From positions 20,900,451 to 20,964,450 of the forward strand of contig OZ316894.1 of NCBI GenBank assembly GCA_973895155.1: a DNA stretch of 64,000 nucleotides. Direction: 5' to 3'. The notes below the pieces were generated by a model. It worked only from the letters and a program-made list of their open reading frames with translations. It had not been told where the DNA came from and ran no database searches. Both the position numbers and the translations under genes were made by a program. Source of the DNA: Marsupella aquatica. Lineage: Eukaryota > Plantae > Marchantiophyta. This document shows, piece after piece, positions 1 to 58,213 of this stretch; the stretch's first letter is position 1, and every line of letters begins with the position of its first letter.

Positions 1-1685
<1,685 letters not shown>

Positions 1686-13884: not shown

Positions 13885-14576
13885 CTAAGCTGGGCGTCTG
13901 TTAAACTGCTCTACTAGATATCTATCTCCATGCCTCTGAATCAAAGGGTCTTCCCATATAGTATGATTATAATCATAATCTCTAAAAAGAGATTTAACTG
14001 ACCAATCAGGATAACCTCTTCCATTGGCAACGAGAAGCAGCTCAAAAGATTTCGCGAGCTTGCTAAGATACGGAATCAACATGTTAGTCAGGAAACAGTC
14101 ATCGTCCGACCCAAAATATTTGGGCGGAAATAATGATCCAAAAACAGGATCTAAACAAGCATGAAATGCATCGGATTCGATAAGCATTATATTTTTCTGC
14201 AGATACGTCTCCGTATAACTTTCAACTTTATCAAAACACTTCAAAAATATCCGCTTATTTGAGGTCGCCCCATCGCATAAGTAACAATGAGACTCATCCC
14301 AAATATACTTAAATGAGGCCATTTCCATCACAATAAAAATAGACGCTAAAATCTGATCTAAAAGGTTCTTCTTAAGAGATGACGAGATCCCTACGTCGAA
14401 ATTCTCAAAACAGAATCTCACAAATTCGTGAAGATAAGGCCTTGGAAAAACGTATACATTCCCAATACAAATTCCAGTTGAGACCGCCATCAGTCGGGAA
14501 TGCGGTGTAGTGTAACAGAGTAGATGCTCCACATCTAAAACTATGAGCTGAGTTTCTCTGCTACAATGTATCTCCT
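13885..14576 (-). CDS. FCP1/SCP-like HAD phosphatase domain, copy 3 (degenerate motif I)
   Basis: LIVLDVEHLL...FPRPYLHEFVRFCFENFDVGISSS...YIWDESHC...FLKCFDKV; acceptor tctctacag at ~14576. Confidence 0.8.
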
Positions 14577-14667
14577 GTAGAGAAACACAATACAAGATAA
14601 ATGAGCCCGTGTGGATGTTGCCACGCGAATAGTCGCGTCACGGATTTACAGACAAATAACATATCCT

Positions 14668-15377
14668 CTACACTCTGGCCTTTGATAAGTGACGTATGTT
14701 GAAGTACTTCATAAGAACTTGATCAGCATGTCTCTGCATGTACAGATGCTCCCATATATCCTCATTCAAAGTCCAATCTAGATGTAGATTTATAATCGAC
14801 CAGATGGGATAATCCAACGTGTTAGCGAACGCAAGACAAAGCCCGGAATGTGATAGCTTCAGTAAATGTGGAATGAGAGTATCCCTCAAAAAGATATCAT
14901 CCAAGGATCCTTGAAACGTCTTTGTAAACAACAATCCACATACACCTGTCTGGCATGTATGGGATGGACAGGCATCAATCTGGATTATATTCTCTGGTCG
15001 ATAATCTTGAAACATATCACGTAGTCTGTCCATAGATTTGAAGACAACTCTCTTATAACATTTCTTCACATAACCAAGATGCCAGCAATGATCCTGGGTG
15101 AAAACATATCTCAGCTGCGACAGGTCCATGCTCGACAACATTTCTGAAAGTATCTGATAAACCAGTTTATCCTCGAGGGTAGACCAAACCATCACATCAA
15201 AATTATCATAACAGAATTTTAGAAAATCATGAAGATATGGACTCGGAACGACACATAGAGATCCGATACAAATTTCCGTAGTCCACTTGAGCTCAAGAGT
15301 ATATTTCTTAATATAGCATAGAAAGTTTTCCACTCCTAAAACTAGAAGTTGACGCGATCTGCTCCACTTAGTCTCCT
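14668..15377 (-). CDS. FCP1/SCP-like HAD phosphatase domain, copy 2 (degenerate)
   Basis: LLVLGVENFL...PSPYLHDFLKFCYDNFDVMVWST...YVFTQDHC...VVFKSMDRL...ENIIQIDA; acceptor gatttacag. Confidence 0.8.
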
Positions 15378-15649
15378 GTAAATCAACAATTTGATTCTCA
15401 TATTAACCCCTAAACATAACACACAAATTTTAAAAATATAAGTAAACAACAAATGTTTACACGCGCACGGTCGCGTGACTAATGTATCCATAGTTCAATT
15501 CTCATATTATGCAATCAATTCAACCACGCCACCCGAAACGATACTCACATAACAATATAAATAAATCCACACAGCGATGCGACCGGGCGCGTCACTCACA
15601 ACACAAAGTCAAAAGTATAAATAAGAATTATAAATAAATAAATGTTTAC

Positions 15650-16589
15650 TTTTCTTTGGCTTCCATTGCACGGTCTTTCCTATCTGATAATATTCTCATG
15701 AAATTGTCAAACTCTCGTAAATGGTCAGGATTACCCTGAGTACGAATGGTCACATTTTTCCTCCAAAGATTTGCCTTATCAATATAATCCTTCTGAAGAT
15801 TGTCTCAAGAAAACTATGGAATACCATATCCCCGAAGTCGCTCGTGGAATTTCAACTTCGGATTGAACATATCGCACAGATACGGATATAGTTTTTTTGA
15901 AAATGTGTGTCATCTTCTAGCCCAAAATACGCGTCGGGATACACAGACGAGTAGAAGCTATTTAAGCTCGTCTTATAAGCAGCATCATCCATAATAATCA
16001 CATTCTCCTTGTCGTAATCCTTAATATCGGTGGCAATGTCAGAGAGATATTTGACAAATAGGGGAATGTCATTATTACTCTTACCAATAGGTCGTGTTGA
16101 TTCTTGTCCCCAGATAAATTTAATACGGCTCAAAACCTCGGGTCGGAGAATCAGCCTTATACATGATAGAATATTTTGTTTCAACATACACGACCAGATG
16201 GCAATGTCGTAAAGTTCTGACACCTTCACAAGAAATGTCATTAAGTCAAGCCTTGGATAGAAAACCTTGTGCATGTGTTTGACACCCCTTGACCGAATGG
16301 GCATCCCAGGGCTGCTTTGCTCTGACTAGATAAGTACCCAATTTAGGTCAAAAATTACAAGTCTCTTCATTCGAATTACCGGACCTTTCTGTATCGGTGG
16401 CCCTCTGCGCCGATGGATTAGGCGTCGTCTGTACCTGTGATTTTTGTGCCAAAGGATTTGGAGCCCGTACTACCAAGGTCTTTCCCGCCTCCGGGAAATC
16501 AACGGACTTCAGGATTGGTGCCTTCTTTACTGGTGCCTTCTTTACTGGTGCCTTCTTTACTTGATCAGGGGGTTTCGGGCTAGGTTTCT
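15650..16589 (-). pseudogene. FCP1/SCP-like HAD phosphatase domain, copy 1, preceded by a (PVKKA)n linker; stop and frameshift
   Basis: MKRLVIFDLNWVLI*...YPRLDLMTFL...YDIAIWSC...FIWGQES...LFVKYLSDI...ENVIIMDDAAYK. Confidence 0.8.
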
Positions 16590-17631: not shown

Positions 17632-19555
17632 TTATAGCTTGCGAATGATCTTTGGATTGGGTGGATCCGGCCTTTTTGCACCGGATTTCTTGGGTGCCTC
17701 CTTCGCAGCTATATCACTAGGAGCTCCCCGGGAGTGCAATGATCGATTCACCGGACCGGTTTGTGAAGGTTGGAGAGATGAGGCGGGAAGACCTTCGAAT
17801 GGTTGTGGTAGTTTATTTAGGTATTCGACCATCTGTGAGTCTAACAAATCAGGTTCCGCAATATCCGCTTTGCCAGTCTCCGGTTGGGCTTCCGAGTGTG
17901 TCGTCTCTGGGTTATATTGTGGCCGAGATCACAAACCCGGTCGCGTGAAGTCAGACTTTAGTCTCTTCATAGTTTGAGCGGATTTGGGAGCCAACTACGT
18001 TCCCAGTTCTTCCACTTGATTCTCGGAAAATCGTACATTATTGGTAATCGTCTCTAGTCTCGATTCACTTGCACTTGTCTCCTCTATAATCATAACACCC
18101 TTCCAGTAATGCACAGCCAAAACTGCCTGGACACGTAGCAGCTCGGGTGAATATTTATTCCAATCCTCCAAGGAGACTGTACCTAATGGTGGATCGTCAA
18201 ACTCAAAGTCCGGACGCAGAAAATAGTCTAATATTTTCTTCTTAATTCCAGCGGACGGCGACGAAGGCTTCCTCAAATTGAGCTTTATTTTAGGTAATCG
18301 GTTTGCCTCAGGAATAAGCGAAAGGTCCCTGGCCTTCTCGGTCTCCTAGCTTCTTCGCCTCCTCCTTCTCCGCCTGCTCCTCCTTCTCCGCCTGCTCCTC
18401 CTTCTTCTCGGCCTCCTCCTTCTCGGCCTCCTTCTTCTCAGCCTCTTTCTTCTCAGCCTTCTCTGCCTCCTTCTTCTCACCCTCCTTCTTCTCGGCCTCC
18501 TTCTTCTCAGCCTTCTCAGCCTCTTTCTTCTCAGCCTCCTTCTTCTCAGCCTTCTCAGCCTCCTTCTTCTCAGCCTCTTTCTTCTCAGCCTGCTCCTTCT
18601 TCTTGGCCTCCTTCTTCTCAGCCTCCTTCGTCTTCTCCTTTGTCTTCTCGGCCTCCTTCGTCTTCTCGGCCTTCTTTTTTTTGGCCTCTTTCTTTTTGAC
18701 CTCCTTCTTTTCGGCCTCCTTCTTTTTGGCCTCCATCCTTGCCTGCGCCCTCCTCGCTTCCGCCCTCTCCGCCTCCTCCCTCTCTGCCTTCAGATTCTGT
18801 GACTCTTCTCTCTCCTCCTCCTCGCTCTCGGCCTCCTTTCTTGTGGGTTCCTCCTCCTCGCTCTTGACCTCCTGTCTTGTCGGTTCCTCCTCCCCGCTCT
18901 CAGCCTCCTGTCTTGTCGGTTCCTTCTCCCCGCTCTCGGCCTCCTGTCTTGTCGGTTCCTCCTCCTTGCTCTCAGCCTCCGGAGGATCCTCTCTTGTCTG
19001 GCCCTGCCTCCTATCCTCATCCACCCTGTCGGCCACTTCTCTCTCTGCTTCAACCGCGGCTTGGACTCTCGCTACCTCTGCCAATGCCTCTGCCTGAAGT
19101 CTGGCTGTCTCAACTCTCTCCGCTTCAGCTCTTGACTTCCTCTTTGCGGAAGCTACCTTTCGAGCTGCCGCCTTCTGCTTCTTGGCTTCTACCTTTTGAG
19201 TCTCTTGTCGGGACGCTTCTAGTCTAAGCGCTTCTTCTCGGGCTTCTTCTCAGGCCTCCTCTTGTCTCACCACTTCTAGTCGGGCCGCCTCCTCCTGTCT
19301 GGCCTCATCATCCACATCCTCCATGTCTTCGTCGGACCCTGCTGTATCTTTGTCAGTCCCCTCATCAAATTTATCAACTTGCTGATTTTCATCAATTTCA
19401 CCGGCTTCCTCACCGTCACTCTCTTTTTTGATTTGGTCATCATCATCGACATCGTTCTGCGGCTCGGTCATCCAATCTAGATCTTGGTCGTCATTGACGT
19501 CCCCATGCCCGTTGTTCACTTTGTCCTCACCAGTAAAGCCACTTTGGACTTCATC
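17632..19555 (-). pseudogene. Acidic and E/K/A-rich coiled-coil linker exon (EKKEA repeats) upstream of Ulp1
   Basis: ORFs 19250-19615 and 18308-19084 are in frame across a TGA. A frameshift near 18345 continues into ORFs 17995-18276 and 17632-17847. Acceptor tttgtcag at ~19555. Confidence 0.7.
18350..18980. repeat. Coding minisatellites: (ttcttctcagcctcc)n and a 36-bp EAESGEEEPTRQ unit
   Basis: Tandem 15-bp and 36-bp units are directly visible. Confidence 0.85.
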
Positions 19556-23017: not shown

Positions 23018-24758
23018 TTACATTTTAGGAACGTATTTCTTGACCCAATCCTTTTGCTCCTCGTCATCTAACCAAATCCAATGGTTTCTAAACGTGTCAA
23101 GCTCGGTCCCATCAAAACCACCAAGAATGTCCAGAGGTGGAAGAATTTTGATAGATTCTCTATATCTGATTGCTACATTCCGTGCAGTCAAATGCCTTCC
23201 AAGCGATTCATATCCAGGTCTATCGGTGAAATCGTTTGCTACCAAGGTGACCGTCGCCCAAGTACTACTATAAGTAACTATGTGACGCCACTTCTTACTG
23301 ACTATTCGAATGGCGATCAAGTCCATGACCCGTTTTTTAATCGCATTATCTGACAAATTTCCAAGCAAATAGAAAAACACTTTGACTAAAGGCCAAATAT
23401 ATTTCTTGATAATATCGTCCGGGAGGCCAAGTATCAGTGATTTTGCATTACTCCATATCATGTTCAGATTTATAACCTTTGCACTTGCAATTTGATCCAT
23501 CATCATTTGACGATGAGATTTCCGATTCATGTCAAAGGACTGCAACATCATATGGAAAAGATTAAGAAAGGGACCCTGTCCATCAGGAACTAGAACCACC
23601 AAGATTCTGAGTAAATGTACCAAACTTTTCGACTAGAAGAAGTCGCTCTTCTTCATCTAAACAGTCATATCTGTCACTAAATAATAACACATTGCCGCAA
23701 CTAGTAGTCCCAAGAATGGGTATTTCTGGGAGCAGAGAGATATCCTGTCGAATAACTTGACAGACTGAGTCAAATTCCAAATCCTCAGTCCCGGGTATGT
23801 AGGAAAGTGCGTCATTTGCGTTGTCGACCATCCGGTTTGCTTGTTTTAGGCTAGCCCATAACTTGGTATTCGTAACTAGAAAGTCCCACTTCTTGCTACA
23901 CGCTCCAAGCCGGATAAGGTCTTGGACCCGAGCCACAACCAAATCGTTTTTGGTAAGTTGATATCTACTCAATCCTTGAATTGAAATAAAGTATTCGTAT
24001 AATATTGGCCATATTCTCGAAATGACCAAAACATCTGGTAATCCTCCTATGAGACGAGAGGAGGTTTTATCGAGCATGTCCCAGATATCTTTCTGTTCCC
24101 TTTCATGAGATGAAAGAAATCTTGAGCCAGATTGAGGAGTTCGCTCATCCTGTTGTTATCAAATCACAAAACATTGTTAGAAGTTGTCTCACGCGCCCGG
24201 TCGCGTATGTTAACAACTAGCATTCAGGTCATCCTCAAGGTACCCAACTTTGTGGCATCTTATTGTAAACTGCCATTTTTCAACTAGGTGAAGAGCATCA
24301 TAGGTCTTTGTAAATAGTTCTCTAAGAACGCTGGACATCGACCCCAGGAATTTAATTCTTGGGTATTTCTTAAAGAAACTTTGCACAGTCGATGAGAGAG
24401 ACTCATTTGGGATTGATTTAGCAGTATGTCTTGGGAAATCTAAATCTAATAAACTCAACTTGATTATACCCAATAGATAGGTATTACCAACAAGGTGGCA
24501 CCATCTGCGACACACCAAAGATAGTCCAATCAACTCATTCAATTCCTTTGTTGAGAAATTTCCTGCATTAGCCGAGCAATTAAAGGAATCCTTGATTCGA
24601 GGCCAAATCAATTCCGCGACAATGTTATCTGGAAGTCCAGGTAATAGTGTCTCAACAAAGACAGAATATCCCTCCATTAGGCCATCTTGGGTTCTGTCGG
24701 GAACGTCAAATATAGGGCAGAGATATTTGAAGCTCTCAAGACTAGGTTCCCCCATCAA
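23018..24758 (-). CDS. Three tandem F-box-like domains
   Basis: LLPGLPDNIVAELIWPRI..LSLVCRRW; LIGGLPDVLVISRIWPIL..LGACSKKW; LILGLPDDIIKKYIWPLV..IRIVSKKW; similar C-terminal halves. Confidence 0.75.
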
Positions 24759-25214
24759 TGAACCTCTATTTTGATTTGTAACGCGAGTGGTCGCGTCAAA
24801 TAATCAAAATGTTTCCTTCGATCACGGAACTAACTATAAGAGGTCTAACGAGCACGCGACTGGTCATGTTAACTGCACCTAACATGCGACTGGTCGCGTC
24901 ACCTAATCCTCGGAAATCTCTAAACCTCCCGTGTGGAGATCTACCTCACACTCGACTGGTCGCGTCAAAAGATAATCCAAAATTGATCGAACAACAAACC
25001 AGGAGTAGTCACAATACCTGTACGGACTGATAAATCCAAATGCGAACATGGAATTATTAAAGTGAGATACATGTCGTGCGCATACATATCGCTACACAAC
25101 ATACATCGCTTGTCCCATACATCCAGACATAGTCACACTGCCACATCACAAACACAAGAGAATGGAATACAAGTGGAACTCATGTCCACACATGTCCAAA
25201 ACCCACAATAAACA

Positions 25215-25398
25215 ACATTGAAGGGCCCTGGTATTCAAATTGAATTGGCTAGTGATGCGCCAATCTTTCGTAGACCATACCGTTATAGTGACATGGAGAG
25301 AGCTCTGATTCAAAGCAGAACTCAAGATTTGTTGGAGGCTGGATTGGTGGAGATTTCATATGGGGAGTATGCATCTGCCACAGTGATGCCAGCCAAGA
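25215..25398 (+). repeat. 184-bp inverted duplicate of 26538-26721 (RT N-terminal region)
   Basis: Reverse complement matches without visible mismatch; both encode KGPGIQIELASDAPIFRRPYRYSDMER...VMPAK. Confidence 0.95.
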
Positions 25399-25399
25399 T

Positions 25400-26880
25400 T
25401 GCGGCTTAATCCATCTGCATCCAAGTTCATTTTTCCAGGCCTATGCACCACCTGGAAATCATACTCCTGTAACAACAATGCCCATCGTGCAAGCTTCCCT
25501 GTAAGCTTGTCAGACTCCATTAACCACTTAAGAGGCTGATGATCAGTGATCAAGGTAAAGGGGTTACCAAACAAGTAGCAACGAAAGTGTGCAACAGCCC
25601 ACACTGCTGCCAAACACTCTCCCTCATAAGAGCTATACTTAGCCTTTGCTGCATTGTTTGATCTACTGGCATAAGCCACAACAAACTCATTCCCCTCATC
25701 ATCCTTCTGAGTCAGCACTGCTCCAAGTCCTACTCCACTCCAATCATTGTGTAGCTGAAATGGTCTGCCTGGAATGGGTCTTCTCAAAATAGGGGATGAT
25801 GCCAACCTTTGCTTCAACTCCTGAAAGGCATGCTCTTGGTCATCACCCCAAGTCCATTCCTGATCCAACTTAGTGAGTATGGTTAAAGGTTTAGCAAGCT
25901 GGCTAAATCCTTTAACATACCTCCTATAGTAGCTCGCCAATCCCAAGAATGCACGAACTTTGCTCACATCAGTAGGATGAGGAATCTGTGTAATGGCCTC
26001 CACTTTAGTCTGCTGTACACCCAATCCCCCTGGGTATATAGTGTGGCCCAAATACTCAATCTGGTCTTGGAAGAACTTACACTTGCCAGGATGGAGCTTC
26101 AACCCATGTGCTCTCAATCTCTCCAACACAATCTGCAAGTGTTGCTGATGTTCTTCCACAGTAAAAGAATAGACCAAAATATCATCAATATAACATCTGA
26201 CAAAATCCAAACCTGCAAAGATTTGATCCATGACTCTCTGGAACTCAGCTGGTGCATTCTTCAACCCAAATGGTAAGAATAACCACTGATACAAACGATC
26301 TTTGCCATAAGAATCAATCCCCCAAAATGTTGTCTTGGACCTGTCAGCATGCCTAATTGGAAGCTGATGGTACCCTCGTTGCCCTCAGATCCAATGAACT
26401 GAAAACCTTTGCATGCCCCACAACATCAAAGATCTCCTCAGGTATGGGCATGGCATATCGATCAGATTTTTTCTGGCGATTAATAGGTCTGTAATCACCA
26501 CACATGCGCCTATCTGTGTAATTGCCATGCACATCCTTCTTGGCTGGCATCACTGTGGCAGATGCATACTCCCCATATGAAATCTCCACCAATCCAGCCT
26601 CCAACAAATCTTGAGTTCTGCTTTGAATCAGAGCTCTCTCCATGTCACTATAACGGTATGGTCTACGAAAGATTGGCGCATCACTAGCCAATTCAATTTG
26701 AATACCAGGGCCCTTCAATGTCCCCAAATCCTTCATGCTGAATGCAAAACAATTCCAATAACTCTTCAGGAATCGATGCATGCGATGTCTCTCCTCCCCT
26801 GTTAACTTAGGGCCAAGTTGTGGTTCCCAACTCTCCACCAAATCCCTAATATCTCTTTGTAGGGTAAAAGAGATAGCCAA
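25400..26880 (-). pseudogene. Gypsy reverse transcriptase and RNase H
   Basis: RMCGDYRPIN, LPFGLKNAPAEFQ, CYIDDILVYS, VRAFLGLASYYRRY, DWSGVGLGAVLTQ, VAYASRS, TDHQPLKWL, ADGLSR; frameshift near 26380. Confidence 0.95.
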
Positions 26881-27813
26881 TGATTGCTATTTAGCAGTAG
26901 ATTGAGCAGTCCCTTCCTGCTCAACAATCTGTCCAGCCTTGGCCAATCCTGCCATAGGTCCATGGACTGTCTGCTCGCCCCCAGCTGTGGTCAATACTGT
27001 CTCAGTGGACCACAAGCTCACCAAGGGACAATCAGTAATTCTAGCAGAGCGCATCAGCAACTGTTCAGCTACTCCCAAGCTGATAATCCAAGTCAAACAA
27101 TTCAGGTCCATTGCTTGACCAAGAACCTGGCGCCGCAAACCCTCTGACACAAAGGCAACTGCAGTGGTGCCAGTCAAAAATCCCATAGCATGCTCTCTCT
27201 CGTCAGCAGTAGGTTCCACTAACTACTGGAGAGCTGTGTCCCACACAAGTCCAGGGCCACCTGCTCTGAATGCATATGAAGCAGAGTGGCTTACAAGAGT
27301 GGGTAATGCACAACGTGGGCGCCCAACTACATTGACCATTGCCAATGGAGGTCTATCAGGTTGGGTCACACCCTGTGCCCGACGCCCTGGATCCAAAATA
27401 TCATCCACCACTAAGGCTGGTGAGCGTGGAATGCTATCAAATGCGCGCTTCAGCACCTCACATGGGATCAAATTAGTCCACCACAAGCGTGGACGATGTG
27501 CACGAGAACCCACACGTGCAGCATCCAATAACACAGCAGGTCCAATCCAAGACCTCACCTGGTGAACACTAGCAATAATCCAACTACGATCATCACCTAA
27601 CAATGGCACATTCTCCAAAATGTATGCTGGAGATTATGTCTGATGTAGTTGGAGATGACGCAGCACCCGTAACATCTCCCAAAACAATGCAGAGCGTGGA
27701 TCATGAAGTCCATGCCCAACGCCAGCTCTAGATTGGCCCTAACATGGCCAACCAACAATCACCAAATCAATGGGGCCAACACGATGTAGATGATCCGCCC
27801 CCAACAATAAAAT

Positions 27814-30800
27814 TGTGATGCCTAGACAGGAATCACTCGGCCAGTTAAGTGGGTAAAGCAGGAAGGCACCCTAGAAACACCTTAGTATAGGGACAAAACA
27901 AGGAAAATATAAACAATTAGGGGCGACCATGGAACCCGGGCCGAGGACGGAGGTAAGGACGCTGGGGGTGAAAACTCGATTAGGGTTAGGGCGCGTTAAG
28001 CGTTGGCGGCTAGGAAGGATCAACGGGAAGAAGGACCGGCATAGGAGAGGGGTAAAGAGTGCTTGCAGGAGATGGTGGCTCATTTGCGAGCATGAACTAG
28101 GCAGACGACTACGGGAGGCCAACTACTGTCAGCTGCTTAGGCAAGCACTCGGGGAGAGAGTAGATACCGACAATCGACCTAAGGAGGGTATGAGCAACGT
28201 CAATCAAGCGACACATTTTTGGGGATGCCTGTTCGAACGGGCAACTGAGTACATCAAGACTTACGAGGACAAGGAATCAGAAAGGGCAGCTCGAGAACGG
28301 CAGGAGCTCGCTCGATTGTGGGAGCTGCAGAAGATGGCTTTCTTAGGAGGCGAACTCATCAAAGACGAGTTCTTGTGGACTCCTACTTCCAATCAGCTCG
28401 ACGATCTTCTGTTTTGCAAAGACAGCGTCGTCGGCATCCGAGAGGCCATCAAGAACTGCAACGACATACACTGGGAATTGAAGGGTAGCACGGAAAGGTG
28501 GACCCAGGCAACAGTGCTAGGAGAAACCTCCACGGCAGCAGAGATGAAGAGGAAGGGAGCCGTCAACGATGAAGCCACCCCGGCAAAAAGAACGAGGTCG
28601 GCGGCACCAAAGAAGCCAGCCGAGCAGCAGAGCAGGAGGCAGGGAGAAGCCGAAGAGGAGGAGGTCGATCCCATCAAGGCCATTCCAACCAGGGATGACA
28701 CGTGGAAGGGCTGGGCGGCAACCCTACCGGTAGAGGTGCAACTACATTTTGCACGGGAGGAGGATGCCTGCTTTACGGCCATGCAGACCAAGAAGTACCA
28801 AGGCTTCATGGCCGGATCCGGCTTAGAGGCCTTTGTAAGATTACCATGGCTGAAGCCGGAGGTACCGGAGTCAGACCTATTAGAATTCGTGGGGTCATGG
28901 GAACCCAAGACCAATTGCACGAGGATATATGGGAAGGATTTCTATCTTACTCCCAAAGTGATTGCCGAAGTGTTTGGCTTGCCAATAGGCAATAAGACCA
29001 AAGTTGATACCAGGAAGACCTTGCCTGACAAGGAGTTCCGGTCGTTCCCCGGACCATCAACGAAGAATGGCTTCTTCCGGAACACCTGCACCAACCCGCA
29101 CATAGGAGAGATGATCGACTTCTTGCGGGTGACCATGCATTGTCACTTGCCGAGGGCGGAGATCGGCAAGGCACAGGTCTATCTGGCAGAGAGGCTAGAC
29201 CCAAGCCGGGACTACAACGGGTACCTTCTCAACCAATTGAAGAAGATCTTAAAGGAGGAGCAGCAGGTAATCGGCATGGGGAGCGTGTCGCGGCTTGGCT
29301 ATCACATGCCGCTGTTGTGCCGGTATGCCAGAGGTCAGACTTTTGCCCCAGTACTTCCCCTGTAGGTAAGGGCACCCGAGGAAGCTCCAGCGCCGAGGCC
29401 GTTAGCAGAGAAGCCTCAACCACCTGTTAGCCCTACGATCGAGCAGGTGTTTAGGCCCAGGAAGGAGGACTTGCCGATGCAGCAACCAGGCATGCAGAGT
29501 CTGCTGAAACTACTGGAGAAAGAAAAGAGATCGGCAATGACAACGGCAACGGCAACAATGCAGAACACTACTCCAGAGGTAGGCCTACACCGGCTCACAA
29601 GAGAAAACCCCTTTGCTGGAGACGAGGAGAGAATCAGGCCGGAATCCAAGCCAGGTGTTCGAATGTATGTGGGAGTCTCAAGCTCTGAATCTGAGGCAGA
29701 ATTGCCTGAAGCTCCTACCGACGAAGAGGAGAGGGAGAAGCCGGACGTCCAAGAAATAGAGGAGGCAGTGGAGGACTGCAGCCATGATAACTCCGGCTAT
29801 GGGTCGGACCATCACGTTCCAGGAGTAAGGATCATGGCCGGTTTGTCCCCACACTTCCAAGGGTAGTACGAGGGGACCCCAACCAGCAGAGTAGCCCTGA
29901 GTCTCCCCCACCAGATGTTGCTCCCCCGAGCTTTGACGGCATAAAACAGATGGCGCAAGAATTTCAGGAGCGAAGGCAGGAAGATGAGGTAGCCCTAGCT
30001 AGGGAGAAGGATTTTCCAGGAGGAGATTGGCCGGAGGACATCAGGCGGCTAGCCAAAAAAGGAAGCAAACCTCTAGCCACGATTGAAGAGATCCGCAAGA
30101 CGGCTTGGGAGCAGAGGCCGCGATGGGCGATGCCGATCACTTCTACTTACTCCACCTATGCTAAGAATAGAGCCATGGAGTATGGTGAGATGTGTGGGGA
30201 ACTTGCGCTCGGCATCTTTGGGAGGAGTTGGAGGAAATCACGAGGAAGATGGAGAACCTCCAGCGGCGGGCCGACAACCAAACAGAGCGGCTGAAGAAAC
30301 AAGCCGCAGTATTTAAGTGCTTGTCTTCATCAGGCCCAACTCCAATTGGGGCAACCAAGTTACCAGGAGTGGTACTGGCCGAAGAAAAAGCCGCGCCACC
30401 TGCACCAATGCCGGAAGTAAGTGGGAAGGGGAAGGGACCAGCTGCCGAACCAGAAAAGAAGAAGAAGCGGAAACCTTCAGGGTCAAGGAGTAATCCGACT
30501 CCACAAGCCGTGGTGACCAAGGAGGTAGATCCAGCACCATCCTCTGGCATGAATACGGCAATAGATCCCGCTATCATCACAGGTGGGGGTGGTGCGGCCC
30601 AAGCCGAACTACTCAGTAATGAGGCCGGTATCCCAGATCCGCCTCTTGAGCAGGCCGGGGAGACCATAGCCAAGGCTGAGGCCATAGCCGAGAATGATTC
30701 CCGAGCCGATGCCGACGCCGATGGTGGACCCAGTCAGGCCGATGGAGAGTTGACTCAGTCAAGGGCAGGTAATCTGTCAAAAAACGAACCTACGGCAGTG

Positions 30801-31768
30801 GCTGAGGAGGAAGCGTTGGGGGCGTCCATTGAGGATCCACCACCGGTGTCGTGACGGTGCAAGGGCGCCGTTCCTTTTAGGAAGGGCTGACGTGGAGGGA
30901 GGAGGCGTGAGTGGGCAGGGCGGGCGCTGATCTCCAAGTTTAGGATTAGGATCAGGACCAGGAGCGGCCCTGACACTTAGCTTAGTGGGATTGCGGTTCC
31001 ACTGGTAGGAGCAACACTTGTGCTCCTGCCTTGCTGTACATAGGTAGATCCGGGCAAGTAGATTACTGTTAGGTAGATTAGGCTTACGCTGCAAAGAATT
31101 AGGCGGATCCACTACCAGGATGAGTACCTGGGCAGCGGGGAGCTCAGGGCCTCTTCTTTAGCAAGTTTTTAGTTTGCACCAGCCGGGCTGGGATCAAGTA
31201 GTACGAGAAGCTCTCGGTTAGTCATACAGTGACCCTTGTGTATATTCATGTTTCCTCATGCCTAAGAGCTGAATAGAGTTGGCCTCACGGCTTAGTTCGC
31301 AGAGCTTGTGTATGAGATGTACTGTTTGTATGGCAAGTGCATGGTATGACTCAGTCAGAATGAGTCATTTTGCTATTTGTGTGTCGCATTAACTTGTGTG
31401 AAGAGTGCCCACATCAACCAGAAGGAAGGAAAGTAAGCAGGGGAGTGAGAGTTGGATGTGTCGAGCTGAGAGAGGTCTTAGCGGCTTAACCAAGCCTATT
31501 GGGGATCATTTCGGCGGCAGAATCCAAACATACCTAACAAGACGGAGGGGAAGACGAGGGAAGGCCTAGATTAGGCCGGCTACGTATCTCATGACCCGAT
31601 GAAGGATCTGTCCAGTATATGTGTGTAAAATGTTAATAGTAATAGTAGAAGGTTAGCAGCATCCCATGCCGCTAAGCCGCGGAAACGGCCTCGCCAAGCG
31701 TGAAACCTGCGGGAATCGGCTTGAGCTGGGGGGTTTCTTGGGTTTAGGGAGCCATGGGACGCACCACA
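27814..31768 (+). mobile_element. 3955-bp TG..CA insert (solo-LTR-like) carrying an accessory ORF
   Basis: TGTGATGC...GCACCACA termini; 5-bp TSD aaaat/gaaat; no internal direct repeat seen. Confidence 0.8.
27929..30854 (+). pseudogene. Retrotransposon accessory protein (plant mobile domain / putative plant transposon protein-like), broken into 478, 139, 114 and 220 aa pieces
   Basis: GLEAFVRLPW...LLEFVGSW...IYGKDFYLTPKVIAEVFGLPIG, followed by coiled-coil and SGKGKGPA low-complexity tracts. Confidence 0.55.
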
Positions 31769-32136
31769 GAAATATCAGCAGGTAGTGCATGCTGATAACC
31801 ACGAACAGCATCCACTGGCAGCAACTGTGGATATCTATCCACCAACATAGCCACATGTCGCAATGAGACCCTCCGTGCTGTCTCATCTGTCTCCATATAC
31901 AAATAACGACGCACAGGAATTCTTGCCTGAAGAACAGCAGCCAATCCAGTGCTAATCCCACCAAAAAGATCCAACAAACAAATACCCTCCGGTGGATATT
32001 GCCAAACAATAGGAGTGGTATCCAATGGTGAAAGAGTCACAGGTCCATCTGCAAGAGACTGCTCTGCTCCTGACTGTGGTGTAAAAGCATGACGCCATGC
32101 ATCATGTACCAATCGTGCTGCTGCCTGTGGCAAGGC

Positions 32137-33129
32137 CTATGCAGTGCCCCACACTGGTGGCACAACACTGCCAACAGGTAATCCTCGCATGATGTGCTCC
32201 TCATGAGACTCCTCCAATGGTGGAACATCGGCTGCATGCACATTACCCTCAATCAAATCATCAGGTCCAGCAATTACACCACTGAATGCTGCCAAAGACA
32301 ATGGTGTGGATTTAGGGCCTCCCACAGGTCCACTAAATCTCACTGGCAATTTGCTCAATCGAGCATCTCCTGACTGCCAATCAGGTCTATATGACATTGA
32401 TTCCTCCCAAAAATCAAGAATAAATCCCATGGGGTAGAGCACTGTACATCCCACCAACACATCATATGACTCTGCCTTAGTCAGAATAGCTCGCGCCTGT
32501 ATCTGTGAGCTATCTGTGGTATGACCTTCCTGAATCCTCAAATCAAGTGGTCTCCTGGTGATATGTTGTGTAGGTGTAGGTCCCCCCAATGAAGTCTGAA
32601 TGGGAAAGGGACAATCCTCCAAATCCTCTGGACGCAATCCCAATCCACGTAGGGCAGACTTCCCCAACATCAAGGGCTGAGCACCAGTATCTAGTAACAC
32701 TCTCTCTGGCTGGTATACTGCTCCAAAAGGCCCAACTAATCGGAAGATACCACTCCGATTATCCAATGATACAACACTAGGTTTAAACCTAGTCCTCTCA
32801 AATGCAGGGCGTGCTGGTAAATCCACCAACCTTGCTGCTGTTGCATGCCATGTCTCACTAATAGCAGTAGGTGGTATGGTCTTCACTGCTTCAACACTGC
32901 AAGCTGCTTCTGCATGGGAAGCAACAACTGGAGTGTCCTCATAGAGTGTAGCTGCCAATCTGAACACTTGTGCAGGACCAACTCCCAAGTTCAGCATGTC
33001 TCTCGCTGAAAATAATGGGGCGCGTACCATGGCAGTAGTCGCCCCCAGCAAGGTACCTGTCATCCCTGCTGCATCACTACCTGATTCTGCCAACTTACCC
33101 ACATCAGGGTTTGTCTGAACCGGGTTCAT
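32137..33129 (-). pseudogene. Retroviral-type aspartic protease region
   Basis: RVLLDTGAQPLMLG ... YDVLVGCTVLY. Confidence 0.8.
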
Positions 33130-34529
33130 AGAGGCAGTCTGAACTGTCTCTTACAATGTAAAAGACTGAGGAAGCTTTGTCTGCCGACGTGCATCCCCCC
33201 TTTGTGGATCTAACTCCACTATTGCTCCTCGGGGCTCAAGAGCTTTGGCTGCCCCACGTGTCAAAGCTGCTGATGCATCAATATGTGCAGTGCCACACAT
33301 GAATCCCATGGTGGCAAGGTCTCCATCAGCTCCATAAGATGTGGAAGGACCATGGGATGTGGAAGGTCCATAGGATGTTGATGCCCCATCACCAGAAGTA
33401 GGTCTCACCTGGGAACTAGCCATGGCAGCTAGCTGTTGCTCCAATTGAGCAATCTTAGCATCCTTTGGATCTATGGTTACAGCAGGGGCAGCGTCACCTC
33501 CCTGTCTCCCTGCATGTGGTATGCCACGACCACGTCCACCGCCTCTACCTCCTCCTCCTTTTCCTTGATCATGTGTACGGGATCCTCCTCTCCGTAACTC
33601 AGGATGAAGTGAGAAACACCTATCCTTGGTGTGTCCAGGAGCTCCACAATGATCACACTATCGCTGATCAGGTGCTGCTGCTCCTCCTGATCCTCTGTGA
33701 TCTGGGCAATATCTCTGTGCATGATCCCCACCACAGGTCCAACATCCTGACTGCTGTCTAACATAAGAGGGCACAGGTCTCTGGCTGGTAGACTCTCGTG
33801 CAGTAGGCTTCTCCCTCTGGCTCTTTCGTGCAGTAGGCTGTGGTGTAGATGTAGATGTAGCCTTTGGTGCTTCCTTGGCAAATCCGGAAGTCACCACCTT
33901 CTCATTCACCATATTGAGCTCAATGCGCTCAGAAAGTGTAAAAACAACTGCTAATGTGGGATCTGCATCCCTAAGTAGAGTGACATCTCTTACTCTACGT
34001 TGCAATTCTCTGTCCAAAATTGCATACCAAAACTAGACTGCCTGAGCCTCTGTCACTCCCTTGGTGACAATGATCAATCTGCGCATACAAGTATATACCT
34101 TACGTAGACTCTCTCCAGTCTTGCGCTGGAACTCCTGAAGACCCTTCAACTTATCAGTTCTTACACCCTGATAGTTCTGCTTCAGTACCTCAAAGAATTC
34201 CACCACAGGGTTAAATGATGGCGCAACTTCAGTTCCTGTCACAATCACACGGGCAGGAGTAGCGGTGGATGCTGCTGGAGTGCTGCTGGTGGATGGTGTG
34301 CCACTCTGGCTAGTGCTGCTAGAAGAGGCAGCAGCTGTGGCAATGGGTTGGGCAGACGCACTAGTGCCATAGGTGATGGACACGTAATTAGGTGACCAAT
34401 GCTGCCTCCATGCCTCAATCTCAACCAAATGAGCCTTCCAAAACTCATGGTAGTCATCCATGGGTGGCCCCTCCAAATGCTGAAATAATCCCTTCCATGC
34501 CATGAAAGGGGTAAACAACGTGGCGTTAC

Positions 34530-36479
34530 AGTCGCGAATACAACTTTCACCTACTCGTAATTGCTCCGGCGTTGCCTAACTCCAGCGTTGAGCCCCTCTT
34601 AGATTTGCTACCATCATGGCCATTAGGGATGCGACTAACAAAGAGGAGGCTAGTAAGAGCAAGGACAAGACTTGAGAAAAGCGCGCTCCAATTAACTTTA
34701 TTGGGCCCATTGCCGATCACGGAAATATGAACTATTTTTCTGACGGATCACCATAGGGGCCCGAGAAACCCCACATGAGCCCGATCAGGGGGCCGCATAT
34801 TTCTCGACCAACGGACCCAGGGGCCAAAAGTTATGGCCGACTCAAGCCGCATGCTTGTAGTTTGGGCCCGTTGCCGATCATGGAAAAATGAACTATTTTT
34901 CAAACGGATCACCATAGGGGCCCAAGAAGCCCCACATGAGCCCAATCATGGGGCCGCATATTTCTCGGCCAACGGACCTAGGGGCCAAAAGTTATGGCCG
35001 ACTCAAGCCGCATGCTTGTAGTTTGGGCCCGTTGCCGATCATGGAAAATGAACTATTTTTCCAACGGATCACCATAGGGGCCTGAGAAGCCCTACATGAG
35101 CCCGATCATGGGGCCGCATATTTCTTGGCCAACGGACCCAAGGGCCAAAAGTTATTGTCGACTCAAACCGCATACTTGTAGTTTGGGCCCGTTGCCGATC
35201 ACGGAAAAATGAACTATTTTTCCAACGGATCACCATAGGGGCCTGAGAAGCCCCACATGAGCCCGATCATGGGGCCGCATATTTTTTGGCCAACGGACCT
35301 AGGGGCCAAAAGTTATGGCCGATTTAGACTCGATTAGAGTCGCCGCGCATCGATGGACCAAGAGGGGGTTGCCTGGACCAGGGGGGGTTGCCTGGACCAG
35401 AGCGGGGTTAGGGCCGTAACTTTTAGCCCCTTATGCCACAATTCGCGCTCGAGGCCAAGTTACGAAAGGTTTTCGATTATCTTCGTTTCGAGCTAAGTGG
35501 CGGGGCCCACGGACCCTCAGGTAGGGGGCCAAAGATAGGGGACCAAAGCTGGTCCGGGGGTGGCAGGTCCCTAGAAGCATATATGAGGGGAGTGGTCCTC
35601 TCAAGTTTGAGCTCGAGCTGATCGCGATCGACGAAGATACGTCGTTTCAAGTTTTGAAGCAAAAACAAACATAACTTGACGACCGGATCTCCGTTGGGGG
35701 AGTTTTTGGGCTCGTTGGAAAGCTAATGAAGAAAGCTACCTCATGGTGCTCTCTGATTGTACATTGGATGATTTTGGTTTTGAGGCTTGCAATGGGGGGA
35801 GTCCCTCTTGCCGATCCGAAGTCGAACAGTGACCAAACCGCATTTGGTTCCCACGGGGACCTGATGTTGGAGAGGTAGAACCAAGTAGACTCTGGGGGCT
35901 ACCATTGAGATCTGGTCCCGATGCATGGTGAGAGGTTGAGTGGAACCCGGTTTCGCAGAGAGGTGGCTAAGATCTAGAAACTGAATGGTCCCGGCGTGTT
36001 ACTACTAGTTTGTGACAAACTGAGTTTGGGCCATGGGCATGTCCTGGAGGCAGGACGGTCAGCCATTGACGGGTAGAAAGTGGGGAAGCTTGGGCGACAT
36101 CCGGTAGATAGACTATTCTGGACGAACAGTGATGTCGACCTTAGTTTCAGCTTATGGCAAGGCCATGCGGGCCTGGAAGGCTCTATCCGCTGACCTACTT
36201 ACTAACGACTGTTGAGCTTGAGGCAAGACAATGGTCTTGGGAGTTCCAAGATCAAGACAAGTTCTTACCGGTTGGTTGGTTGCTTGTGCAGATAGCAAAG
36301 ACCGTTGAGCGACGGTTGTGCTGACGAGGGCAAGTGCGGCTTCGTATGGGAGGGGTCGCTAACGACAAGGAGTATAGTCGGGGAGAAATTGCCCCAACAT
36401 TCCGTGTTAGTGCAAGGTTCGATTTGTTTCAAGGCTGAGAAACGAGTTTGGACGGGCACGTGGTGGGAGGGCCACCACT
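34530..36479. mobile_element. 1950-bp non-coding insert in gag (AGT..ACT ends with GTTAC TSD, or CAGT..ACTG ends with TTA TSD)
   Basis: gttac|agtcgcg...caccact|gttac; removal restores the gag frame. Confidence 0.85.
34700..35322. repeat. ~158-bp tandem repeat x4
   Basis: Unit ttgggcccgttgccgatca(c/t)ggaaaaatgaactatttt...ggggccaaaagttatggccga. Confidence 0.9.
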
Positions 36480-36864
36480 GTTACGCAATGTCTGCATATC
36501 GCACCACGTATCAAACTCCTGGATGAAGTCATCTAGATCAATTGTGCCAACTGCACCAGAGTATCGTCATGGGCCCTTTGTAGCCCCGTACATCTCGTCC
36601 ATATCCCACAACAAAGGTGCAACCACCTGATGATGAGGAGAACTGGTCACTGAGTCCTCATCAGAATCACTGTCTGAAGCTGCACTGCTGACTGCTACCA
36701 ATGCCACTGGCCGAAACTGTGCCCCACTCCGAGTGAAACCGGTCCGTCGTCCATTGGGTAATCCAGCAGCACCAGAAGAATCCGTGGTGACCAACCCTAA
36801 CCTAATCTATGTGCTAACCCTAAGGGCAATTTGTCCCTGTCAGCACCACAAGCACTCACCATGG

Positions 36865-45189: not shown

Positions 45190-48100
45190 ATCATAATTAG
45201 TACATGGTGACATCGACAGTCTGGATCAGGGAAGGCGGACAAGTTATTATAGGCATCCGTGACAAACAGGTTGGAAAAGGTCGTGTGATAAGTCTTGATC
45301 CTTCCAGGGTTTGTCACAATGTTACTCTTGGGGCGGATAGAGTTCTTCTTCTATTGGAGGAAGTTTTTGACGAGACTAATTCAATGCGGAGATGGCAAAC
45401 TTTTGAAGGACATGATTGGGGGCTACCTTGTATGGGAAAGGAATCAACTTTTTCAAGCTCCCGTGGAATTGGAGGATTTGTTTGGCGAGGTTGGTGATGA
45501 TCAAGATCCAATTGAGCAAAATTCTGTTGGGAACCACCATAATGAGAGTCAGTTTCGTATGGAAATAGTTTTACCAAAGGCCTTGTGGATGGGCATGCCT
45601 GTAAAGGTGGTGGATGAGAACAAGTTGATTTTTGCAGTGACAACTATACATGTTCTAGATCCTATAGTCAAGCTTGGGGATGTCACCCTTGGGAATACAC
45701 ATGTGGGAATTCTGATCAACAATTTTGTTGAGGGAGCTACGGTTGACCATCTGAAGCATAGAGATTGCTTAAAAGCTTGGTCGATGGACCAACTCATTGC
45801 CAAGGATGGCAACTTGTTGTCTTTCCACAACATTAGGCAAGAAGTGGGAGGGAACACATCTCCTACAAGTGGAAAGCGGTCCTACGTCCATAAAACTAGA
45901 AAAAGAAAGAGTCCATCTTCCTAGACATCTAGAAGAGACACATCTCTGGCACGTCAAGATGTGTTGTTGATAAACACCAAGGACTATTGTAGTGAACATT
46001 GTTGCCAATATTTGGACCGCAACTTGGCTATGGCAATTAGGCAAAAGTGGTGGTCAAAATCTTTTGCGGAGCGCAAGGAGGAGGAAATCAAGGCTATAAA
46101 AAATACAATACACTTGGGTACAGGCGAAAGGATTCTAGTAGTGGAGGGCAAAGTATTGTGCTTGGAGGCATGGAGAATCATTCATTCAAGAGGAAAGACT
46201 CAATTTTATGCCTTGAAGAAGACTGTGATGGCTGGAATGAACATAGGTACCCATGGTAATGCTGGAAAAAGGCGTATGTCTGAGAAAGTATCTCAAGCAT
46301 TCATGTTAATGAAAGAGATTATTGAGGAGGCAGCTGATCATCATCCAGCCAAGTTGAGAACCATGGCAGATAATTCAAGGGTGGTTTTGAGGGAATTTCC
46401 AACCAATCTTACTTGGGAGAATATTAGAAACAGGGTTAATGTTGTCAACAAGGAGGCTGGTCTTCCTCCAATTTCCCAACCCACCTTGAGTCATCTACAT
46501 CAGATGTATTTCAGGGAGTTCTCGCGTCACAAAAAGGGCAACAACTTTTCAAAGTGTACAACTTGTAGTGAGTTGCTTCAACGGAAAGCAAACCTTACAG
46601 GAGCTAAGGAAGAGTTAGAGGGCCTAAGGCGTGACGAGGAGGAACATCACCAAGACCACACACAACAAAGAACCTGGAGATATGAGTCCCTCGAGGGGTT
46701 GACTATAAAAAATCTTAGGAACCACGTGCGATCCAAAATAGGTATTTTGGATCGCACTTAACTAAATTTTTAAAAAGTGTAGGAGGCAAAAGAAGGTATT
46801 ATAAACTCATGTTTATAGAATATTCGTTAATATATACAGTTTATAAAGTAAAATAGGTCATTAATATTAAAAATAGAGAATATTCTTAGAATATTTTCTT
46901 TATAAAATAGGTCTATTTATATTAGGTTAGGATCGCACGTGGTACCCCAAAATATACACTTAGTTAACCCCCCGAGATGAGTCCATCCATCGTCCAAAGG
47001 AAGTGTTATGCCTTATTCATGATAAGATGGATCATTCAAAGACAGCTCTCCCAAGAATGCCCTTCAATCCTAAGCATGTGGATGGTGCCCAAAAGTTCCC
47101 AATTACTGTCACTGGTATCCTTACTCATGGTCATGGTCCCAAGGCCATAGCCCAATATCATGTTGGAGTGTGACCAGGTGATGTCAACGTCACTATTGGG
47201 TCAATTGATTCAATACTAAGGATGTTGGAAAACCCAAATCCAATGATCAAATCTCTTGTGGAGGGGCCAGACTCGACAAGTCTTTTTAAAGACCTCCTTT
47301 TTGGGAGAAAAAAAGATATCTTGGAGGCAAGTGTCCTTAGAGCATTTGAGGATGACATTGCCTACATCTCAAGCCTAGGTACTTTACTCACAATCCTTTT
47401 ATTATTAATAATATAAGCTCACACACACTAACACTCTACTTTGTGTAGTTGTTGCTCCTCTAGCCAAGGTTTCATTAATAGGGTTTAAACCCTAAACCCT
47501 AAATTGGGGTTTAGGGTCTGACTAGGGTTTTATTTAAAAGCATTTTGAGATTGTTACATTGTGATGCAGCACCTGAGGCACCAAAGTTCAGGCCCCTTCC
47601 ACGAGTATTGAAGCTACAACTGGATAATTGTGCCTCAGACAACAAGAACAGATATATGATGGCTTATTTGTCATTGTTGACGGCAAGGGAGGTGTTTGAA
47701 GAGGTTCATCTTGGTTTTATGGTGGTTGGGCATACTCATGAGGACGTTGACGGTATGTTTGGGCATTTTTCAGAGTCTATGATGCATAACCCTACATACT
47801 CATTGCCTAAGTTAATGTCCTTGTTCATGAGAGCAAGGACACCCAATGCAGTCCCACATTTTCTACAGGAGGTCCCAGATTTCAAAAACTACTTAGCTCC
47901 ATTCATGTTGAAGGGCCGTGAGGCATTGGTAGGGCATTTAAAACCCAGGCTGTTTAGGTTCTATGTTCGTCATGATAGTATGCCATGCTTCCAATACAAA
48001 ATGAAGTCAACTGATCAGGGATGGTTACCCAAGGAAGGTATTTAAATGTGGTCATGGAAAGATGACAAAAGTCATCACATCCCAATTGGGGTGCCCAAAC

Positions 48101-48857
48101 GGCTGCCAATGATGGAGTTGAAAATGCTTCCTGAAGTGCTGACAGGGTTGAAGAAGCATATGTCATTCTTTGAGTTTATTCTAAAGCGAACAAAAGAGGA
48201 AGAACCAAAGCGACGTTGGACAATTCTCATCAATTATTGGAATGACATTGTAGTACTCTATAGGGTGAGCAGGTGCAATATGAACCTAAAGATGCACACA
48301 ACTTGGAATACGGGTTTTGGCCTTTATCAATATGGAGAGAGCACGTTCCACCAGAATATCAAAATGTGGCATGTGAGTTGGAGGCAACAGTGGATTATGT
48401 GGGACCAGCAAAAGATAAACCTCCTGAGAGTTTTAACCCTAGGGTTGATGTTGTGAAGGGCTGTTATGTGTTGGTACGGCCGGACGACTTAGACCTGGAT
48501 GTTTATCCCGTCCATATGGGGTTAGTTGTTACAGATGTGGTAGAAGGACCAGTGAATGAACAAAACCTTCTTACTCATGTATGTGGCGTTGAGTGGTTTA
48601 GACCATTTATGGCAAAGAAGCAACGTGGTCAATCAGACTGGCAGCCAAGAGAGCGGTGGGCAGATTCTTGGGATAAGAAATGGGAATGTGATCCAACTCC
48701 AATATACAAGGAAGCTGAGACAATAGATGTTTCCTCTGCCTTGTGGTGTTTCAAAGCACGCAAAGGACCAGTGACAGGGCTGGTAGGAATTCCAAAGAAT
48801 GTTGCTGCCAAGGCAAGAGACTATCTCTTGACATGCATAGCAAGTGACAAATCCTAG
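45190..48857 (+). pseudogene. Sola-like (DUF7869-type) RNase H-fold transposase with two N-terminal En/Spm TnpA-like modules and a C-terminal BAH/Tudor-like domain; stops, frameshifts and a MITE insertion
   Basis: FSKCTTC; LIHDKMDHSKTALP (after MITE removal); LQLDNCASDNKNRY; FMVVGHTHEDVDGMFG. N-terminal VGKGRVISLDP..HNVTLG and IHVLDP..GDVTLG. C-terminal YVLVRP..MGLV..VEWFRP. Superfamily assignment is from memory of motifs. Confidence 0.8.
46690..46976. mobile_element. MITE (287 bp), 16-bp TIR CTCG(A/G)GGGGTT(G/A)ACTA, 8-bp TSD ATGAGTCC
   Basis: TSD at 46682-46689 and 46977-46984; subterminal inverted repeat accacgtgcgatcc/ggatcgcacgtggt; removal restores WRYESIHRPKE. Confidence 0.93.
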
Positions 48858-58074: not shown

Positions 58075-58213
58075 GCTGCGTTGGCTCTAATATGGATCGG
58101 GCGGACCTTAGGGAATGCATTTTTGATGGTAGCGCTTCCCTTTGGAAATTTTTGCACTAGAACTAGGAAGCCTCAATCTTTTTCCTCTTTTTGCGTCACG
58201 AGGATTCAGGAAC

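Follow-up and report, generated by a model that had tools for sequence, protein, structure and literature searches.

A decayed Ty3/gypsy element of Marsupella aquatica belongs to a bryophyte family with a DNMT3-like methyltransferase in front of a conserved, probably leaky stop codon

A stretch of 64,000 nucleotides from the liverwort Marsupella aquatica (contig OZ316894.1, positions 20,900,451 to 20,964,450; hereafter the window) carries on its minus strand a decayed Ty3/gypsy element encoding Gag, a protease (PR), a DNMT3-like C5 methyltransferase (DNMT), reverse transcriptase (RT) and RNase H (RH). Taken as a whole, the likely reading is that of a dead copy from a bryophyte family ordered Gag-PR-DNMT3-UAG-RT-RNase H-integrase (IN)-PHD, in which the stop codon would be leaky and the DNMT would be packaged in the amounts of Gag and methylate the element's own complementary DNA (cDNA). 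An earlier note on this DNA, made from the sequence alone, had given the order Gag-PR-DNMT-RT-RNase H with the DNMT embedded in Pol. We recovered this order, with Pfam matches for the DNMT, RT and RNase H; the DNMT, however, lies outside Pol, as the last domain of a Gag-PR-DNMT frame that terminates at a conserved stop.

A conserved stop codon separates the methyltransferase from reverse transcriptase

Element copies for comparison were drawn from public contigs. Sixty-two of 80 loci cover the DNMT-RT junction (18 do not), leaving 50 after dereplication at 97% (12 near-identical loci merged), of which 41 are close and nine distant. A stop codon stands at the junction in all 41 close loci (31 TAG, 10 TAA), with CAR as the next codon in 38 and TAR in three; the background is 35 stops in 3858 nearby RT codons, three of them then followed by CAR. 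The spacing from stop to RT varies (16, 19, 20 or 23 codons) while the signal is constant. In the window copy the second half of the DNMT runs in frame into RT, with the junction stop in that same frame. The closest protein (82% identity) ends exactly at the window's stop position, and Marchantia and Calypogeia proteins end soon past the DNMT. Intact copies, which the earlier note had recommended looking for, exist: L041 has frames of 1369 and 1047 residues and L081 frames of 1162 (open at the contig start) and 1047 residues, each pair interrupted by the junction stop only. The first methionine of the second L081 frame lies at about residue 115, within RT. The stop at 26887–26889 is therefore a family feature and not decay; it is one of eight in-frame stops in the window copy.

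The stop and its context in the window, UAG-CAA-UCA, fit UAG-CAR-YYA, the readthrough motif of tobacco mosaic virus (TMV), and 3' stems are known to stimulate readthrough (PMC3159437), which for TMV amounts to ~10% in vivo (PMC2754532); here and below, cited papers are represented by those parts of their text that were available. The motif is present in the window, L041, L043, L044, L017 and L081. Six of seven lineages have a predicted stem that starts 12–18 nt past the stop, and its arms covary: pairing of arms with their own partners sums to -119.3 against a mean of -89.4, with 8 of 5040 permutations equally good. In L081, which was found later, the stem pairs at -30.6 kcal/mol. Because the conserved stop follows the DNMT and fits TMV-type readthrough, the DNMT sits in the abundant Gag-PR frame and not in Pol. 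Judged from this context, the stop is quite probably read through by a minority of ribosomes; that the downstream stem stimulates the event seems somewhat favored.

Several observations weigh against this interpretation. Strict YYA occurs in 6 of the 41 close loci; CCC takes its place in 34, with ATG next in nearly all cases (CAR-CCC being the form of most Sphagnum-like copies), so that reinitiation is possible. Since 37 of the 41 share one spacing, nearly all from one Sphagnum-like subfamily, the sample amounts to only about six independent lineages. Among the nine distant loci, five have no stop and four have a stop without CAR; P0170/P0209, within the same RT clade, are open at the junction, and the DNMT-RT frame is open in Closterium P0228 and in P0158, P0209 and P0216. 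Single-sequence folding gives a z-score below -2 in just two of eight cases, L060 has no stem, and the stem arms were selected post hoc from folds. The stop context is invariant across four public runs, a weak argument alone, as 26890–26896 are likewise invariant (5% threshold).

RT, RH and IN could also be made by other routes—a splice over the stop, reinitiation, or a transcript of their own—all of which would leave the DNMT in the abundant first frame. We consider this unlikely. The conserved ATG directly past the signal in the Sphagnum-like subfamily would suit it, as would the Marchantia gene models P0132 and P0133, which join DNMT to RT by predicted introns, and for Candida Tca2 the route past a similar in-frame stop has been called unclear (PMC2194720). 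Yet L017, L041, L044 and L081 lack a nearby ATG, the joins in P0132 and P0133 fall at different places, as ab initio models presumably do around stops, and splicing needs neither exact conservation of frame nor a CAR codon.

The methyltransferase is a fixed feature of the family

A search with the DNMT half gave 249 proteins similar in length, 49 that are longer, and 1811 representatives of clusters. Identity to the DNMT is 68% in Marchantia polymorpha, 67% in M. paleacea, 66% in Calypogeia (C. fissa), 70% in Sphagnum and 64% in Riccia (R. sorocarpa), and in one cluster 15 of 18 members are M. polymorpha proteins. More distant matches come from Closterium (44%, DNMT-RT-RH-IN), Scenedesmus (43%, RT-RH-DNMT-IN-PHD) and Klebsormidium nitens (40%, zinc knuckle-protease-DNMT). 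No vascular plant is among the DNMT matches listed, and viral contigs gave no match with the DNMT or RT query. Two proposals made from the sequence alone thus hold: the lineage is present in embryophytes, with homologues in the genomes of Marchantia, Riccia, Calypogeia and Sphagnum, and it is related to the Klebsormidium transposon DNMT, which is homologous and occupies the same place after the protease.

The order across the 80 loci is Gag-PR-DNMT-RT-RH-IN-PHD. Where a locus has room, RT lies 3' of the DNMT in 61 of 64, integrase in 33 of 36 and PHD in 20 of 28, with the protease 5' of it in 45 of 58. L081, the one close RT-found locus reaching upstream, carries the DNMT. The DNMT is a fixed family feature and not a chance insert. 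Copies of the family without it, or an origin as a stray host fragment, would have spoken against the earlier reading; the latter is contradicted by these counts. On the other side, copies without a DNMT are under-sampled because the loci were found with a DNMT query, and one contig joint in public run X1 passes over the DNMT, from 26957 to 32208, with 22 nt on its short side. That a host DNMT3 fragment fell by chance into this single copy has a negligible probability. In its favor is that bryophytes do have host DNMT3 genes (PMC5890265); against it stand the shared position in those 61 loci and in five named bryophyte species, the absence of introns, the congruence of the RT and DNMT trees, and a host accessory domain in none of 16 DNMT-only long matches scanned.

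A phylogeny of both domains had been suggested as a check, and the RT tree and the DNMT tree (L070 left out for its short RT) do recover the same groups, though unrooted and without a host DNMT3 outgroup. Elements of the PR-DNMT-RT type form one RT clade (95), the K. nitens record being without RT; Klebsormidium groups with Closterium, outside the bryophyte clade. Vertical descent from algal elements and re-entry would both fit these unrooted trees. Recent transfer between the compared subfamilies is argued against, as synonymous sites are saturated. Two further loci, L083 and L084, were treated as unrelated elements (RT identity 31–32%, no DNMT seen).

P0257 and about 50 long proteins have another architecture, RT-RH-DNMT-IN-PHD, in which the DNMT lies between RNase H and integrase. 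This group includes Scenedesmus sp. PABB004, its DNMTs form their own clade (95/89), and it is without description in the literature covered. In P0320 a family DNMT of the Closterium-like clade lies behind a copia-type Gag (Retrotran_gag_2, E=1.6e-17), possibly a further type of host element. Four entries (L081, L082, P0041 and P0535) are filed in bacterial genome bins (Synechococcales, Obscuribacterales, Leptolyngbya), where they could be mistaken for bacterial methyltransferases; they are most likely stray eukaryote contigs.

The methyltransferase is DNMT3-like and under purifying selection

The DNMT matches Pfam DNA_methylase (PF00145, E=1.8e-8, above the curated cut-off) with its motifs unrearranged from I to X. 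The motif numerals follow the usual convention and were compared only with DNMT3A alignments. Likeness to DNMT3, first noted from these motifs, was upheld by sequence, profile and fold: as a single sequence against solved structures the domain finds DNMT3A/B/C best (E=2.4e-6), the family profile scores DNMT3 at 4.4e-29, DRM2 at 1.1e-13 and M.HhaI at 4.4e-10, and the predicted model of its relative P0008 (71% identical, pLDDT 92) has DNMT3A as best Foldseek match (E=5.8e-19). In this similarity ranking, which is not a rooted tree, DNMT3 stands nearer to the domain than do DRM, DNMT2 or bacterial enzymes.

Compared with L002 and L017, the DNMT of the window shows nonsynonymous divergence (dN) of 0.24–0.26 and synonymous divergence (dS) of 1.6–1.9, a ratio of ~0.14, and 70 of 72 loci retain the catalytic cysteine and 70 of 76 the glutamate. 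The DNMT is under purifying selection. Between subfamilies its conservation is above that of Gag and protease and below that of RT; within the decayed Sphagnum-like subfamily its dN/dS ratio is 0.49, similar to other domains.

Whether the enzyme is catalytically active, prefers CG and has cDNA as its substrate is, by analogy with characterized relatives, an evenly balanced proposition. CpG depletion, a possible sign of self-methylation, gives no consistent signal and counts against it: intact relatives have observed/expected ratios of 0.55–0.78, compared with 0.29 for the window copy and 0.34 for a transposon region of the window that is not related to it. A Klebsormidium transposon DNMT was inactive in yeast, a result its authors call inconclusive (PMC5890265), which likewise speaks against activity. 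It is possible, if rather doubtful, that the DNMT acts on another target—RNA, other transposons or the host DNA near insertions—or chiefly serves to bind and coat cDNA. Both results just given would agree with this, and DNMT at the level of Gag presumably exceeds the need of one 9-kb cDNA. By contrast, the retained catalytic residues favor activity, the fusion behind Gag and protease points to packaging, and the DNMT3 domains of Symbiodinium DIRS elements methylate CG in yeast (PMC5890265).

Layout and decay of the copy in the window

A single minus-strand frame spans Gag, two zinc knuckles and the protease up to DNMT motif I. The earlier note had delimited the element as 26887–33129, which takes in the protease and DNMT but misses most of Gag (33151–36602) and all of RT-RNase H (25399–26886). 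The features are as follows.

36480–36602, minus: 5' part of gag, begins MDEMYGATKG, one stop; matches the gag start of Marchantia P0127 and is cut off from the rest by insertion 2
34525–36479, no strand: insertion 2 in gag, ~1955 bp; flanked by 5-bp direct repeats, with a 161-bp tandem repeat inside (34701–35322)
33151–34524, minus: gag body with two zinc knuckles (33744–33721 and 33657–33631); in-frame stops at 34035, 33660 and 33153
32140–33150, minus: spacer and aspartyl protease, LLDTGAQ at 32697–32677; in-frame stop at 32139
31769–32010, minus: N-terminal half of the DNMT, motif I LDLFGGISTG at 31974–31945, motif II at 31905–31885
27814–31768, no strand: insertion 1, 3955 bp, ends TGTGATGC...GCACCACA (TG...CA); splits the DNMT and holds a plus-strand frame of 496 residues
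27070–27808, minus: C-terminal half of the DNMT, motifs IV, VI, VIII, IX and X; decay stops at 27741 (catalytic loop), 27636 and 27225
26881–26889, minus: junction stop (26887–26889) and its context, conserved in relatives
26779–26880, minus: predicted RNA stem 3' of the stop, arms ~26880–26857 and 26802–26779, picked after the folds were viewed
26030–26832, minus: reverse transcriptase, YIDD at 26192–26181, 4-nt frameshift near 26376–26390
25399–25862, minus: RNase H, complete, ends DADGLSR (25421–25401); the element is truncated here
25215–25398, plus: 184-bp inverted duplicate, 100% identical to 26538–26721, in place of the integrase end

In the C-terminal half of the DNMT, motif IV (27771–27742) is followed directly by the stop, and YILENV (27624–27607), HRPRLWWTNL (27498–27469), EREHAMGF (27201–27178) and RRQVLGQAM (27135–27109) come after it. 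Pfam matches are strong for RT (RVT_1, E=4.7e-27) and RNase H (RT_RNaseH, E=6.4e-36); that of the protease (Asp_protease_2, E=0.0034) is below the curated cut-off. Integrase and the 3' end are absent from the window, cut by the 184-bp duplicate, which is either a rearrangement or an assembly error.

That the copy is dead, as had been concluded before, is evident from decay stops, an insertion splitting the DNMT, a frameshift and a lost integrase end. The earlier description of the damage, PCQ changed to PC* plus an insertion, had left out the second insertion, in gag, and the RT frameshift. In contigs from related public runs both insertions are skipped, the RT frameshift is absent, the catalytic-loop stop is mostly absent and the sequence extends beyond RNase H. 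As these contigs differ there, the insertions, frameshift, catalytic-loop stop and lost 3' end are damage to the window copy. Insertion 2 is skipped in four of four related runs, insertion 1 in X1 and X2, with X11 nearly uncovered across it. Contig depth is even across DNMT and RT; it gives no copy number and is not used as evidence. Insertion 1 has a 5-bp target duplication (27809–27813 and 31769–31773, one mismatch) and weak Atlas leads, at 0.85, to Transposase_32 and ATHILA open reading frames; it looks like a solo or deleted long terminal repeat (LTR) element of another family.

The termini of relatives are not those of a canonical LTR element

The features of the ends come from relatives; a search of the window copy for its 5' repeat and self-priming site found neither. 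A 340-bp repeat, A, forms the left end. The right end consists of B, a repeat of ~113 bp preceded by a G-rich tract, or of B-A-B. All four distinct insertions with both ends resolved have the form A...B-A-B or A...B with a 4-bp target duplication (L001, L039 and L075, with ends not resolved, were left out), and the ends are of the TG...CA type. A-coding-B-A-B is complete in L050 and L061/L065, and B-A-B right ends are also found in L006, L016, L057 and L067/L068. Ordinary LTRs were considered for the 340-bp repeats and dropped, as the same sequence follows the right-hand copy in different loci. Two identical terminal LTRs are not present, the left end being A and the right B or B-A-B. Relatives L041, L044 and L081 have an rve integrase in the order PR-RT-RH-IN. 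The element is gypsy by its proteins and not a canonical LTR element by its ends.

The bases directly past A are complementary over 11–17 nt to a stretch ~30 nt beyond a TATA-like box, the complementary sequences differing between subfamilies, which makes self-priming of the Tf1 type likely. The border of B and A is the palindrome GACA-GC-TGTC, exact in three subfamilies, and it is an open call, evenly poised, whether integration proceeds from a circular cDNA cut at this palindrome, shifting part B to the right end. The counts are less favorable, as are the failed searches in the window copy: the palindrome (with at most two changes) occurs in 12 of 22 loci and in 205 of 1100 shuffles, and the self-priming complement in 5 of 16 regions.

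The same ends might arise without a circle, for example if one additional strand transfer on a linear cDNA gave A-coding-B-A-B and recombination between B repeats gave A-coding-B; we rate this as a credible but less probable course. The repeat survey of relatives found no A-B-A left end, though this is the product expected when a two-unit circle is cut at its other palindrome, and B-B recombination gives the same A...B product. On the other hand, the A/B junction joins an end defined by the primer site directly to a start defined by the G-rich tract, as the junction of a two-unit circle would, and in subfamilies whose proteins are only ~50% alike the B/A border reads CA-2 nt-TG, resembling an integrase site before cutting.

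Proposed mechanism

In the life cycle that we propose, most ribosomes on a single transcript would make Gag-PR-DNMT and terminate, and a minority would continue through RT and RNase H to integrase-PHD. Within the particle, where new cDNA is the DNA at hand, the DNMT would be released by the protease and would methylate the element's own cDNA, shielding it or pre-setting chromatin. Reverse transcription between the self-priming site and the G-rich tract would place B-A at both ends, and the circularized product, cut at the palindrome, would give exactly A...B-A-B or A...B. The PHD finger, by analogy, may guide the integrase to chromatin.

A broader scenario is tentative, and we hold it to be improbable as a whole: a gypsy clade of the green lineage would self-prime and circularize its cDNA, its DDE integrase would cleave at an internal palindrome and not at the ends of the cDNA, its particle would receive Gag-level DNMT3 via the leaky stop, and copies would insert pre-methylated. 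The DNMT would have been captured once, before the chlorophyte/streptophyte split, and would have come to occupy two positions, after the protease in streptophytes and between RNase H and integrase in chlorophytes.

Comparison with known systems

The nearest described element is KnitGypsy-Dnmt3 of K. nitens, likewise of the Ty3/gypsy type, whose DNMT3-like domain is intronless and unrearranged and evolves under purifying selection (PMC5890265). The K. nitens protein GAQ93235 shares the zinc knuckle-protease-DNMT order at 40% identity, and the DIRS-like repeat layout stated for KnitGypsy is found here in relatives of the window copy (PMC5890265). The paper places the KnitGypsy DNMT in the Pol frame, whereas that of the bryophyte family ends a stop-closed Gag-PR frame (PMC5890265). 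The hosts here are liverworts and mosses, and an integrase PHD, self-priming and a palindromic end site go unmentioned for KnitGypsy in the available part of the 2018 text (PMC5890265). The bryophyte family is related to KnitGypsy-Dnmt3; what is new is the conserved stop of a leaky type that puts the methyltransferase with Gag.

SymbioDIRS-Dnmt3 also bears a C5 methyltransferase, which methylates CG de novo in yeast, and methylation of the element's own cDNA, as a shield or to pre-set chromatin, was proposed for DIRS elements by de Mendoza et al. (2018; PMC5890265). DIRS elements differ in having a tyrosine recombinase and no target duplication, where the bryophyte family has an rve integrase and 4-bp duplications. 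The EpiLTRs of Cymbomonas and Euglena are further retrotransposons with a C5 methyltransferase, but theirs is reported as sister to DNMT4 and is accompanied by DAM and chromodomains (bioRxiv 10.64898/2026.05.21.726589).

With TMV and benyvirus readthrough (PMC3159437, PMC2754532) the junction shares a single in-frame UAG, CAR-YY and a predicted 3' stem past a short spacer; most Sphagnum-like copies depart from the TMV context, with CAA-CCC instead of YYA. In MuLV, SIRE1 and Tca2 (PMC2194720) and in Tj1 (PMC4600332) the in-frame stop comes after Gag or before env, and in the bryophyte family it comes after protease and DNMT. As in the self-priming elements Tf1/Sushi/Tcn1 and Tj1 (PMC4600332, PMC6317226), no tRNA primer site was seen and the bases after the 5' repeat find their complement ~30 nt past a TATA-like box; the bryophyte family differs from Tf1/Sushi/Tcn1 in a PHD finger in place of a chromodomain on the integrase, in permuted terminal repeats and in the DNMT (PMC4600332, PMC6317226).

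The full-text literature covered, subscription journals lying outside it, held no description in its available parts of such elements in land plants, of the junction stop or of the end mechanism. Papers of 2025 and 2026, as far as available, mention "streptophyte" Gypsy-DNMT3 citing the 2018 work, and their trees may include bryophyte copies; a term search of one available supplement of PMC12344493 gave no match.

Other features of the window

A beta-amylase gene with introns lies at 1–1682 (plus). In a tree of 34 rows its exon falls with Marchantia paleacea and Riccia fluitans (98/90) at only ~54% identity, which points to a probable liverwort host distant from those species, long-branch effects being possible. 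A gene at 6800–7816 (minus) has zf-XS and XS domains and presumably belongs to the SGS3/IDN2-like RNA silencing family. Three tandem NIF/FCP1-like phosphatase frames, two of them confirmed by Pfam, occupy 13888–16325 (minus), and three tandem short F-box frames with repeated ACGCG(A/C)(C/T)GGTCGCGT motifs lie at 23018–24803; both groups are possibly cargo of a large DNA transposon. Other mobile or repetitive sequences are a Lys/Glu/Ala-rich frame of 15-bp and 36-bp repeats (18311–19249, minus), a decayed DNA transposon-like region (45292–48854, plus; DUF7869, E=1.1e-37, CpG 0.34), a 144-bp tandem array whose minus strand encodes the Cys-rich repeated peptide CIQCGRCIP (51118–52396), and a nearly complete long interspersed nuclear element with few stops (55803–62131, plus; DUF4283 in ORF1, an endonuclease-like frame, RT E=6.2e-27). 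No tRNA genes were found within the 64-kb window.

Significance

What transposon-borne DNMTs do has been an open question since 2018, and all examples came from algae that are hard to manipulate. Because the family occurs in Marchantia polymorpha, the question can now be put to a genetic model for which methylation mutants exist. A first clue to how the enzyme is used comes from the conserved stop: under selection the DNMT stays with the structural proteins, and RT and integrase are kept scarce. The permuted ends suggest a route of integration unexpected for a DDE integrase, and since they are permuted, standard LTR-finding programs would overlook the elements or set their limits wrongly. Many family genes of M. 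polymorpha are annotated as "hypothetical" (e.g. Mp4g09160, Mp8g17980 and Mp5g06330); if the broader scenario is true, this liverwort carries many unrecognized genes for de novo methyltransferases.

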